DNA of 64,000 nt from Chthoniobacteraceae bacterium (GCA_035555975.1 DATMFV010000135.1:1-64000); one strand, 5' to 3'. Shown: positions 48,489 through 52,302, numbered from the stretch's first letter. A program made the numbers and translations. Notes: generated from the letters alone by a model not told the origin.

Positions 48489-48596
48489 AAACACGAAAGG
48501 GCGGCGGCCCCCGGCATGGGACTCCGCTCCACGCCCGCCACCCGCCCGTCCGGAAAGACGGGTGTCAAGCTTCCCCTCACCAACGCCAAACCGCTG

Positions 48597-48821
48597 CTAT
48601 GTTGTCGCAGGGTGATGGGAGCGGCTGGCGCAGGAGGCGCAGCAGTAGACCTTCCCCTCCTCCTCCACGCCATGCCCGATCACCCGGCAGCCACAATGCG
48701 CGCACTTCGGGGCAAGGGCCTGAATGGCGCACTCAAAGCTGTCAAAAACGTGGGATTCCCCCTGGATGGAGATTTCCAGCGGTTTGTCGTATTCGTTGCC
48801 GCAGACTTCACATTGCATCAT
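48597..48821 (-). CDS. Small Cys-rich, zinc-ribbon-like putative metal-binding protein (TRASH/YHS-like), 74 aa.
   Basis: MMQCEVCGNEYDKPLEI…HVFDSFECAIQALAPKCAHCGCRVIGHGVE…YCCASCA. An internal MM start was chosen; the 92 aa upstream of it in the track ORF are Arg/Gly-rich junk. Confidence 0.45.
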   Translation of the reverse strand: MMQCEVCGNEYDKPLEISIQGESHVFDSFECAIQALAPKCAHCGCRVIGHGVEEEGKVYCCASCASRSHHPATT

Positions 48822-48924
48822 GCCCGTAATATCGTGAGCGCCACGCCCGCCGGTCCTGCCGGAATGGCTTTTCCTATGCCCGCCACCCGCTGGGGAAATG
48901 CCCGCGCCTTGCGGTGAAACGGAA

Positions 48925-49179
48925 TCACCGGGTTTCCGGTAACGGTCCCTCTTTTTTCGTCGGCCCGGCGAGAAAGTCCACGGCAAGCGTTGCCATCGTG
49001 CGGGCGCTGACGACCAACGCGCTGTCATCGACAAAAAAACCGGGGTTATGATTAGGGGCTGCTTTCGCCGGGTCTTGATCAAGCGGTGTAATCCCAAGGA
49101 AAACGTAGAGGCCGGACCATCCGCTTGCTTGCGCTACTCCTGAAAGTGGCATCCCACACCCCCCTGCGAGAGACGTGGG
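48925..49179 (-). pseudogene. C-terminal ~85-aa remnant of an M20D-family amidohydrolase. The N-terminal ~300 aa are missing, at the low-GC islet border.
   Basis: …GWSGLYVFLGITPLDQDPAKAAPNHNPGFFVDDSALVVSARTMATLAVDFL resembles the C-terminal HHxP(K)FDxDE…A…FL block of M20D amidohydrolases. The frame opens at a TAA at 49180-49182 and GC content drops just beyond it. Confidence 0.45.
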
Positions 49180-49244
49180 TTATTTGGTGAGAACCTGATT
49201 GAACCAGAGGATAGCCGCTTCTCCCTCTTTCTGCACAATCTCAC

Positions 49245-51398
49245 TTACCGTACGACTGTGGCGGATGCCGTTTCGTAATTCAGCCAGTTGATCGAATTTG
49301 GTGCCAAGCGACTCCTTTGTGCCAAAACGTGATTAAACAGAGGCCATGACATCCTGCCGACAATGGTGGCCTGCAACTCTCGAAGATCGAAATATTCCAA
49401 TTTTCCGACCAATGTTTGAAATCTTTCAACGTCAAGAGATGCGTTCTTTTTAGTAGCCCGGGCTATCCGTTCGTCTACCTTTTGCAGAACGTGTAAAGGA
49501 ATCTGCGACAACTCGGTACCGACGACCCTCTCGATCATTGCGCGCAGGGCGAGCTCAACCTTCTCGGTTGCCGCATCCAAATCGCGGAACTGAGGCGACA
49601 GGTCAAGACGTTCTTTGATCAGGAGGTTCTCAATCGCCTCTTGCAGAGTACGTTGGCGCTCCGCGATGAAGCACTCAAAATCTTCAGGACCGAACTCGGG
49701 TCTGAGCAGGATGTCGAACGCTGCGGGAGAGATAAAGTGTGATTCGAGAATGCTGCGCACCGTGGCTTCACCGCTCTGCGTGATCAACTCAGGCAAGTAT
49801 TCATAAGGGAGACGTGCCCTGATGATGTGTCGGTTGGTGTTGGCGGTAAGCGGCGTGCGGTTAAGGATCGAGTTACCGAGGGCATCGTTGATATTATCCT
49901 TGCACCACGAAGCAGGAACAATGTGATGGTCATCAAGGTCGCCATATTGGGGAACATCGCCGGTCATCCAATCCCGAGCCCCTTGAAGGATCAAAAGGTT
50001 GAAGATGCCGTTGTAAACGGAAGTACCCCGCTTGATTTCCTTCCGCAATTCGAGATTGCGGAAGCGTTGTGCAAACTCTGCAATCAAGGCAGGCTCTGAA
50101 ATATCGTTATGGAACCATTCTTTTACATCCAGAAAATCGCGAGCACTAGTAGACTCGACTGAGCCTGAATAACGGTTATTAAAGACGGATGCCCAATACC
50201 AGTGCCGGAGTTTCCTGCGAGCGTCCAGTTGCCTTACTGCCGGGAGTGTTTTGCTGTGAGCACGCAGCGCCGCAAAGACGGGCAGAATGGAAACATATGG
50301 GAGAAAGTTCGGGTTGACAGCCCCATACTCTTGAGGGTGGCTCAAGACTTTAAGTGCACTATCCAACGCATCGACAGCAATATTCCACCGCGATTCAAAC
50401 TCACTAATATCGGAAATGAGAATTTCTTTGCGTCGCGTGCCGTCTGGGTCGCGGACCGGCTTCTCTTGCCCTGGTAATAAGAAATAAAGATACCTCGGCG
50501 AGCAATAACCCTGCCGGAGAATACTCATTACCTGAAGAATATAGACGTTCATTTTCTCGGTTTCGACCGCCTCAAGCCGTGGGGCTGCTTCTCGCCACAT
50601 TTGTTTGAGTTGAAGTCCTTTTGGCTTCAGCAAGGCATTGATGAGGTCGAATACATCGAGACGGATGCCACGGCTATTGATTTGCGTAAAAATATCACAA
50701 ACCTTATCCACTTTAAGGTCTTTATCGAGCTCGATATATGAGATCTGGTACTGACCGGTGATGCCCTGAAGCAGCTCACCAAAAGCCCTGGCATTAGAGC
50801 AGTGGTTTTGTGCGAGCTGGGCCTCCTCCCCTCCTGCAGCTTCGGCTTTCGCCTTCCAAAACGCCTCGTAACGCTGAACCCAGTTCGGCAACTCCCACCC
50901 GGTCGCTCCAATAATGGAGAAAGGAAATAAATGATTGGCAAACTGTGCTTCCTGATCGGAAAGAACGTTGACCCATCGACGAGTTAGCCTTTCGTAGCCG
51001 AATGCCTCGTCGTATTCTTCCTTCATGAATTTATCCACATGCACGAAATAGAAGAATCGGCTTGTTCGATTGGGAAGTGGCACGTCGGGCGACAGGAACG
51101 CGTAGTATATCGCTGTAAGACGTTGTTGTCCATCAAGGACAATATATTCCGGCTTCCCGACACCCTCGTAACCATAAATAGACTCGCATGACAAAGCTTC
51201 AAAGTTCTCCGTCTTACCCTTCCACAGCAAGAGACTCCCGATGTAGTAATCAAGAAAGATTGAGCGCATTAACTCCCGGATATCCCAAGGCTTCCATTCG
51301 AATTCCCGTTGGAAATCCGGTATAACGAAACGTCCTTCGCGGAGGTAGTTTACAAGAGTGTTAAGACTAAGGTGATCGGGCCTTTGAGCGCCTTTCAT
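49245..51398 (-). CDS. DUF262 (ParB-like, DGQQR) plus DUF1524 (His-Me/HNH) fusion protein. A GmrSD/SspE/BrxU-like putative modification-dependent nuclease with an extra ~150 aa C-terminal domain.
   Basis: N-terminus IPDFQREFEW…YIVLDGQQRLTAIYY (DUF262) and C-terminus GDLDDHHIVPASW…NSILNRTPLTANTNR (DUF1524); 717 aa. GC is around 50% against ~65% in the flanks, with an AT-rich codon bias. Confidence 0.75.
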   Translation of the reverse strand: MKGAQRPDHLSLNTLVNYLREGRFVIPDFQREFEWKPWDIRELMRSIFLDYYIGSLLLWKGKTENFEALSCESIYGYEGVGKPEYIVLDGQQRLTAIYYAFLSPDVPLPNRTSRFFYFVHVDKFMKEEYDEAFGYERLTRRWVNVLSDQEAQFANHLFPFSIIGATGWELPNWVQRYEAFWKAKAEAAGGEEAQLAQNHCSNARAFGELLQGITGQYQISYIELDKDLKVDKVCDIFTQINSRGIRLDVFDLINALLKPKGLQLKQMWREAAPRLEAVETEKMNVYILQVMSILRQGYCSPRYLYFLLPGQEKPVRDPDGTRRKEILISDISEFESRWNIAVDALDSALKVLSHPQEYGAVNPNFLPYVSILPVFAALRAHSKTLPAVRQLDARRKLRHWYWASVFNNRYSGSVESTSARDFLDVKEWFHNDISEPALIAEFAQRFRNLELRKEIKRGTSVYNGIFNLLILQGARDWMTGDVPQYGDLDDHHIVPASWCKDNINDALGNSILNRTPLTANTNRHIIRARLPYEYLPELITQSGEATVRSILESHFISPAAFDILLRPEFGPEDFECFIAERQRTLQEAIENLLIKERLDLSPQFRDLDAATEKVELALRAMIERVVGTELSQIPLHVLQKVDERIARATKKNASLDVERFQTLVGKLEYFDLRELQATIVGRMSWPLFNHVLAQRSRLAPNSINWLNYETASATVVR

Positions 51399-51446
51399 AT
51401 GAACAGTCCTTTCTTCATAAATAGAGTCGATAGGCGGGCATCCACC

Positions 51447-51887
51447 TCAGCGGCATCGTGCTTCAATGGTATAGCTAAAAAATGTTGCACAAATAGCGCA
51501 GCAGTCTATCCGATAGACGCCTTTGTTGGTCCAGTGCGCATCGCTCATTACATCATAAAGCGTATGCGGGTTCGCTTGCCCAATGCCCCAAGAGGCAGCT
51601 TCGAACGTCTGTTCAACGTTTACTACGACTTCCCGGACGTCGCGAAAATGGCGACTCTCGGCCCTTCGAAAGCGGCAGTTCTCCAGAAAAAGTGCTGATT
51701 CCCGATCTTTATCGAACTCCTTCAGCGCGGCCCCATGCTGTTCGTAATGAACATCGGAGGGGCGTTTCGAGAACGGGAGCGAAAAGGGGTATAATTTACA
51801 ATCTGCAGTACGGAGCGGCTTCTTGAGAAACCACGCGGTTTCCCAAAAATGAGATTCGAGTTGTTGCTGGGTGAGTCTTTGCATCAC
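51447..51887 (-). CDS. Hypothetical 146-aa protein in the low-GC islet, 48 bp upstream of the DUF262/DUF1524 gene on the same strand.
   Basis: Protein-like composition (…HFWETAWFLKKPL…YRIDCCAICATFFSY…). The overlapping + ORF 51309..51698 is rejected because it overlaps the big gene's start. Confidence 0.4.
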   Translation of the reverse strand: MMQRLTQQQLESHFWETAWFLKKPLRTADCKLYPFSLPFSKRPSDVHYEQHGAALKEFDKDRESALFLENCRFRRAESRHFRDVREVVVNVEQTFEAASWGIGQANPHTLYDVMSDAHWTNKGVYRIDCCAICATFFSYTIEARCR

Positions 51888-52210
51888 AAGGTGTCGCGGT
51901 CTGCGCCAAATCGCGCGAGGTTAAGGCGGACCTGGGATGTAAAGCGAGCGTTTTTAAGGAACCCTTGGAGATAACCTCGCCCCCCTCACCTCTCCGTTCA
52001 TGTTGACCATTCATTCCAAGTCAAGCGGTCACAGCAGAAAAGACCGATAACTACTCATGGATCGAAAAAAGAAAATGTGTGACAGTCATGTGTGACACTT
52101 TCTCTTTTTCGGTCATTTTTGAGGCGATCCCTCAAGAGTTGGGGGAGATCGGCAAACCTACGTTCTCCCTCGTGCAGCAATGCAAAAAGAGTCCAGAGGC
52201 GTGGAGGGGG

Positions 52211-52302
52211 TGGCGGAAGGGGCGGGATTCGAACCCGCGGTGAGGTTTCCCCCACGTTCGATTTCGAGTCGAGTGCCTTAAACCGGACTCAGCCACCCTT
52301 CC
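52211..52302 (-). tRNA. tRNA-Ser(CGA), type II with a long variable arm, including the encoded CCA.
   Basis: Reverse complement: GGAAGGG TG GCTGAGTCCGGTTTAAGGC A CTCGA CUCGAAA TCGAA CGTGGGGGAAACCTCACC GCGGGTTCGAATCCCGC CCCTTCC G CCA. The 7-bp acceptor, D and T stems pair, the T-loop is TTCGAAT and the anticodon loop is CT-CGA-AA. Confidence 0.85.

Follow-up and report, generated by a model that had tools for sequence, protein, structure and literature searches.

Introduction

Do two adjacent ORFs within a low-GC islet of a bacterial genome constitute a two-gene phage defence system? This question arose from a 64-kb stretch of DNA (the window), which is 100% identical to contigs of a metagenome-assembled Chthoniobacteraceae (Verrucomicrobiota) genome. 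An earlier note on the window had described a nuclease ORF of 717 aa and, just upstream, an ORF of 146 aa as a candidate defense cassette, in which the small protein, said to be of unknown family, might act as a sensing or regulatory partner for a nuclease whose C-terminal extension was regarded as novel. Here we report that the observation behind this cassette is partly confirmed and its interpretation partly supported. In our reading, which we consider likely, what survives in the islet is an eroded Type I restriction-modification (R-M) operon, acquired horizontally and carrying an embedded single-gene nuclease whose HEPN domain has been frameshifted.

Results

The ORF list confirmed that the two ORFs, at 49245..51398 (717 aa) and 51447..51887 (146 aa), are both on the minus strand and lie 48 bp apart. 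They are contained in an islet at 49100..52210 (composition profile; boundaries approximate), where the GC content of 0.46-0.55 is low compared with 0.62-0.66 in the flanks, as had been claimed. We interpret the islet as horizontally acquired DNA that holds two remnants. It is adjoined by the 3' side of a tRNA-Ser(CGA) gene (52211..52302, minus strand; ARAGORN; Rfam RF00005, 51.9 bits). When the DNA on either side of the islet was searched for att-like direct repeats, only short, chance-level matches and nothing convincing emerged, and the ORF list contains no integrase ORF in the islet. Because neither an integrase nor tRNA-derived direct repeats were found, insertion at tRNA-Ser is at most suggested by the adjacency and the low GC content. 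Promoter and terminator scans performed no better than scans of shuffled sequence.

Besides tRNA-Ser(CGA), the neighbours of the islet are metallothionein-like and acetyltransferase genes. The metallothionein-like ORF, at the edge of the islet (48597-48821, minus strand), encodes 74 aa, is rich in cysteine (MMQCEVCGNEYDKP...CAHCGC...CCASCA), and weakly matches prokaryotic metallothionein (Pfam PF02069), with an E value of 0.003 that falls below threshold. In its place, the public assemblies call an opposite-strand ORF of 133 aa (48516-48917, plus strand), which has no family and may be a mis-call.

The N-terminal part of the nuclease matched DUF262/GmrSD_N, a ParB-like NTPase domain (Pfam PF03235, E=1.5e-31; residues 14-257; 50628..51359, minus strand), and includes the DGQQR motif, in agreement with the earlier note. 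This motif is present in all full-length members of the family, down to 27% identity. With a diverse profile, the DUF262 region matched BrxU (7p9k) with E=8.5e-26, and in a PADLOC search of the locus, which had been proposed as a check, the window protein matched HEC-05 (E=3.8e-22).

Farther toward the C terminus lies a candidate His-Me (HNH/DUF1524-like) motif, DLDDHHIVP...SILNRTPLT..TNR, at approximately residues 485-530 (49809..49946, minus strand), assigned from conservation within the family and weak profile matches. In the numbering of P0002, an intact homolog, H495, H496, and N526 are conserved in at least 90% of the family, and P499 and N517 are invariant. The pattern DDHHIVP...N513...N522 is kept down to 25% identity. 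The region gave a weak colinear alignment through the DHIYP of BrxU and matched the Cas9 HNH domain with E=0.0037. In a distant member, a stretch that excludes HEPN aligned with the C-terminal end of the PADLOC HEC-05/BrxU model (positions 469-592, E=1e-7). Thus, the nuclease motif described earlier is present, in the form DDHHIVP...N...N, but the Pfam threshold for the corresponding family is not reached: no member tested, including the window protein and P0002, attained the gathering score of DUF1524/GmrSD_C (PF07510), and the best score, on a distant member, was 20.8 bits versus a cut-off of 23. Taken together, these comparisons offer converging but modest evidence for a His-Me domain. For the full-length protein, AlphaFold gave no usable model (mean pLDDT 53.8), as the sequences in the alignment were not diverse enough.

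The 717-aa ORF exists as described, but it is not the natural gene. As encoded, it runs into an early stop at 49245. Comparison with the DNA of a related locus (L001), whose homology to the window extends from 51411 to 49177 at 77.8%, revealed that one G has been deleted after codon F688, between 49335 and 49334 (minus strand). Here the window reads CTGTTTAATCACG and L001 reads CTGTTTGAATCACG (WPLFESRF). When the missing G is restored, the frame comprises 739 codons and ends at TAA 49182-49180; the ORF list, three-frame translation, homolog alignment, and L001 DNA homology together give a full extent of 49180..51398 (minus strand) for the gene. A frameshift in the GTTTTG T-run was also considered and was rejected, since it is 8 nt off and the nucleotide comparison with L001 places the deletion of a lone G upstream. 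The last 29 residues of the 717-aa ORF ('NHVLAQRSRLAPNS...'), which had been quoted as part of the novel extension, are out of frame: homologs continue '...KFDQLAELRNGIRHSR...KEGEAAI.WF...' where the window ORF encodes nonsense and then a stop.

Searching a database with the restored sequence, we found 2809 relatives. Of these, the best 120 are mostly 743 aa long, are 73-85% identical, and come from many phyla, and nearly all of them cover 100% of the restored query. Among 80 related loci, the region is in frame in 78, and the remaining two are cut by contig ends.

Could the missing base be a sequencing or assembly artefact, such that the organism in fact possesses an intact, 739-aa DUF262/His-Me/HEPN single-gene defence? 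The source is a metagenome-assembled genome, and but for this one base nothing sets the gene apart from intact homologs; in the out-of-frame tail, all invariant HEPN residues are still encoded. However, the identical deletion is found, at 100% identity, in an ENA megahit contig (L084) and in a Logan contig (L085, run SRR7976237), assemblies that were made by different software, possibly from the same reads. In addition, the lost base, a lone G with TTT on one side and AA on the other, is not a homopolymer length error. We conclude that the frameshift is probably real and that an artefact is quite improbable.

Apart from the deletion, the nuclease gene bears little mark of decay. Over columns that are at least 95% conserved, it has 7 private changes versus 5.6 +/- 3.4 in intact homologs, and its dN is 0.087-0.196 versus 0.10-0.20 between intact copies. 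The nuclease is no more diverged than intact homologs, and the frameshift is therefore recent, unlike the old deletion in hsdM described below. The gene may have worked almost up to the present, or it may retain part of its function.

The extension that had been deemed unassignable corresponds to approximately residues 592-739 of the restored protein (49180..49625, minus strand) and is interrupted by the frameshift. Using Pfam and NCBIfam, we found no significant family for the native or the repaired domain, with weak hints of DUF3644 and HEPN_SAV2148; no Pfam HEPN model was significant on this module of the nuclease family, and sequence-only PDB searches with the domain returned spurious weak matches only. 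For the last 148 residues of intact P0002, AlphaFold confidently predicted an all-alpha structure (pLDDT 92.5) with the four-helix up-down bundle of the HEPN fold. Furthermore, an Rx4-6H motif, R713-N-G-I-R-H718 (P0002 numbering), is invariant in the family, and R713 and H718 are invariant even in relatives at 25-50% identity. Judged from the predicted fold together with this motif, the C-terminal domain is a HEPN domain of the Swt1/Abi2-like kind, known rather than new. Indeed, the Swt1-like HEPN family as tabulated previously lists a fusion of 'ParB (DUF262) with HNH (DUF2081) (VNG7073), active' (Anantharaman et al. 2013, PMC3710099, Table 1), and thus the ParB(DUF262)+HNH+HEPN architecture was already catalogued. 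The same work places SAV_2148 in this family and reports that Abi2/AbiF HEPNs are embedded in R-M operons (PMC3710099). We found no experimental study of the DUF262/His-Me/HEPN family in the literature.

In the window, the Rx4H motif (LAELRNGIRHSR) is encoded in the shifted frame, and the ORF as it stands lacks it. Because the frameshift occurs after residue 97 of the 148-residue domain, the Rx4H helix and the final helix are removed; with two helices and the catalytic motif gone, HEPN function has presumably been lost.

In a sensitive search, 512 cluster representatives were found to carry the HEPN module, and one fusion protein with the module had a weak HEPN_SAV2148 match. The module is also C-terminal in other conflict proteins (P0136, P0151, P0164, P0224, and P0232), where its fusion partners are helicase C with an Mrr nuclease, a BrxL N-domain with an ATPase, an adenylate/guanylate cyclase, Mrr_N with DUF262, and a protein kinase with Schlafen AlbA_2.

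Among distant relatives of the DUF262/His-Me core, one on a Haladaptatus plasmid (L086 3971-5776; 601 aa, aligned over residues 15-597) is naturally without HEPN, and one on a plasmid of the halophilic archaeon DL31 (L087 4007-6112, annotated 'DUF2081') has a Schlafen AlbA_2 tail in its place. The idea that the DL31 tail is the same HEPN domain was rejected (hhalign probability 0.5). Together, the tailless and the AlbA_2-tailed proteins imply that the C-terminal position is a swappable slot.

These relatives raise the question of whether the 717-aa protein might still be active, as a stand-alone Type IV enzyme that relies on its intact DUF262 and His-Me regions. Its first 688 codons are conserved as in intact homologs, the Haladaptatus protein demonstrates that HEPN-less members exist naturally, and the AlbA_2 tail indicates that the C-terminal module can be exchanged. 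However, the window protein does not simply lack HEPN; it ends in about 97 residues of half a HEPN domain plus 29 of nonsense, which could misfold or block dimerisation. Moreover, a HEPN tail is present in 78 of 78 assessable loci of its own clade, which suggests a need for it there. We consider such residual activity possible, if on the unlikely side. Under our preferred reading of an eroded operon with a frameshifted nuclease, the window protein would be inactive or, at best, a HEPN-less DNase.

What, then, is the 146-aa ORF (51447..51887, minus strand)? Its family is not unknown. In PADLOC, it matched Type I methyltransferase profiles, which are 700-900 residues long; the match to MTase_I covers profile positions 1-122 of 896 (E=3.7e-23). 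BLASTP and tblastn likewise aligned it with residues 1-122 of HsdM, at 55% identity to the hsdM product encoded directly upstream of the nuclease homolog in L001. Thus, homology to the N-terminal domain of HsdM spans codons 1-122 (51522..51887) and ends at '...WTNK' (residue 122); 24 unrelated codons and a stop follow. Pfam HsdM_N did not match the degraded stub. The N6_Mtase catalytic domain (AdoMet binding, NPPF/Y motif) is absent from the stub, and there is no further HsdM similarity in the 64-kb window; a second hsdM was likewise absent, and tblastn using HsdS and HsdR of L001 as queries found neither hsdS nor hsdR in the window. With no methyltransferase catalytic domain, no hsdS, and no hsdR, the window contains no functional Type I system. 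The earlier statement that no methyltransferase is nearby thus holds for an intact gene, but an hsdM N-terminal stub adjoins the nuclease.

To gauge the decay of the stub, we used dN and counts of changed invariant columns, since dS was saturated in most pairs and dN/dS could not be used. Ten intact HsdM proteins, encoded upstream of the nuclease in the closest related loci, served as the reference; against these, the stub is changed at 20 of 56 invariant columns, versus 0-3 in leave-one-out controls. Its dN is 0.28-0.46 versus 0.08-0.18 between intact copies, which is 3-4x higher. Neither public assembly calls the stub as a gene. The 146-aa ORF is an old, decaying hsdM pseudogene fragment that has drifted without constraint.

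The idea that its product senses or regulates for a nuclease with a novel C-terminal domain draws on the common orientation of the two ORFs, the 48 bp between them, and their location in one low-GC islet. However, the small ORF is a decaying HsdM N-terminal stub that lacks the catalytic domain and was passed over by the gene callers of both public assemblies, and the C-terminal domain of the nuclease is HEPN. Conserved linkage, the lack of which the earlier note had named as counting against its proposal, is not observed: no other hsdM N-terminal stub lies upstream of the nuclease among the 80 loci, where short ORFs at this position are contig-end truncations, and no small neighbour is conserved. 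The proposal is refuted by these conservation results, and we regard a two-gene cassette of this kind as extremely improbable. The stub has no partner function; at most, and speculatively, its 5' region may still supply the nuclease promoter.

The linkage that does recur is with Type I R-M genes. The ten closest loci share the arrangement hsdM-nuclease-hsdM-(other genes)-hsdS-hsdR, and in 10 relatives the stop codon of the first hsdM overlaps the nuclease ATG by 4 bp (ATGA). An hsdM gene is found within 10 kb in 27 of the 80 loci, and in at least 19 of 66 it is the gene directly upstream. The remaining neighbours in the 80 loci are mostly singletons. Frequent embedding of GmrSD-like genes in Type I R-M has been reported (Payne et al. 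2024, 10.1101/2024.01.29.577857). We conclude that the nuclease is a self-contained module, often embedded in R-M operons, without a dedicated small partner.

Individual loci vary in their detail. Full-length hsdM paralogues, each with HsdM_N and N6_Mtase, lie on both sides of the nuclease in L001 (8580-13806), L004 (3405-8660), L007, L008, L010, L017, L025, and L044, and in all of these the upstream hsdM stop overlaps the start of the nuclease by 4 bp. In L001, the nuclease stop overlaps the start of the downstream hsdM as well. Paracoccus sp. S-4012 (L003 240-12241) presents a different defence-island context: the intact nuclease is preceded there by a cluster of Type III-like R-M genes (SNF2 helicase, DUF4391, N6_N4 methylase, and ResIII + RE_endonuc), with genes for a phage-type integrase and an AAA_13/SMC-like ATPase also nearby.

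Across Verrucomicrobiota, Alphaproteobacteria, Chloroflexota, Planctomycetota, Acidobacteriota, and methanogenic archaea (Methanoculleus, 68%), members of the family share 62-85% amino-acid identity. Such conservation is unusual for a defence gene and implies recent, frequent horizontal transfer.

Discussion

Our analyses suggest the following history for the islet. An old deletion took away all of hsdM beyond about codon 122, and the operon has also lost its second hsdM along with hsdS and hsdR. The nuclease remained under purifying selection until very recently, when one G was lost after codon 688. As judged from fold and motifs, the intact protein comprises three modules, a ParB-like DUF262 NTPase, a His-Me DNase, and a Swt1/Abi2-type HEPN, whose activities are predicted from their families. 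Given its likeness to BrxU and GmrSD, the most probable role of the intact enzyme is to cleave modified phage DNA that has evaded Type I restriction. The two activities would then be complementary, with Type I attacking unmodified DNA and the nuclease attacking modified DNA, and the HEPN domain might add RNA cleavage or dimer-dependent control.

A stronger version of this idea is that the intact, ~743-aa family represents a dual DNase/RNase effector working as a functional part of Type I R-M, being translationally coupled between hsdM paralogues and serving as a backup when Type I is evaded or inhibited. We advance this tentatively and think it rather unlikely.

For the window itself, the locus is an ordinary, decaying remnant, and our reading predicts no working two-gene system. 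Cloning 'both genes' would amount to assaying a truncated enzyme together with a pseudogene stub. The family as a whole merits moderate interest, being abundant and cross-phylum and combining a GmrSD-type DNase with HEPN. Better material for study would be an intact homolog, e.g., P0002 or P0004, in an hsdM–nuclease–hsdM–hsdS–hsdR operon.

How does the locus compare with known systems? It resembles Type I R-M in that the small ORF is the HsdM N-terminal domain from residue 1 and the closest relatives of the nuclease sit in complete hsdM-hsdS-hsdR operons; it differs in that the window has no methyltransferase catalytic domain, hsdS, or hsdR. The HEPN domain belongs with the Swt1-like/Abi2 (AbiF, AbiD) clade, although the window copy is disrupted, and VNG7073 is likened to the family from its description in PMC3710099 only. 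PD-T4-2, a validated anti-phage system (Vassallo et al. 2022, tabulated in PMC10952713), likewise brings together a DUF262 protein and a HEPN protein. However, it is tabulated with another HEPN model, PF18735, and the window protein has no PADLOC PD-T4-2 match.

The closest comparison is with BrxU/GmrSD, the single-chain Type IV enzymes of PADLOC HEC-05. Significant sequence similarity to BrxU is confined to the DUF262 part, and BrxU, at 587 aa, lacks the extra C-terminal HEPN of ~148 aa that is found in the nuclease family. Nevertheless, the two have in common an N-terminal DUF262 with DGQQR, followed colinearly by a helical linker and D/E-H-x-x-P...N...N, which in BrxU includes the DHIYP shown experimentally to be essential for defence, and BrxU/GmrSD enzymes are also embedded in larger defence operons, including those of Type I R-M.
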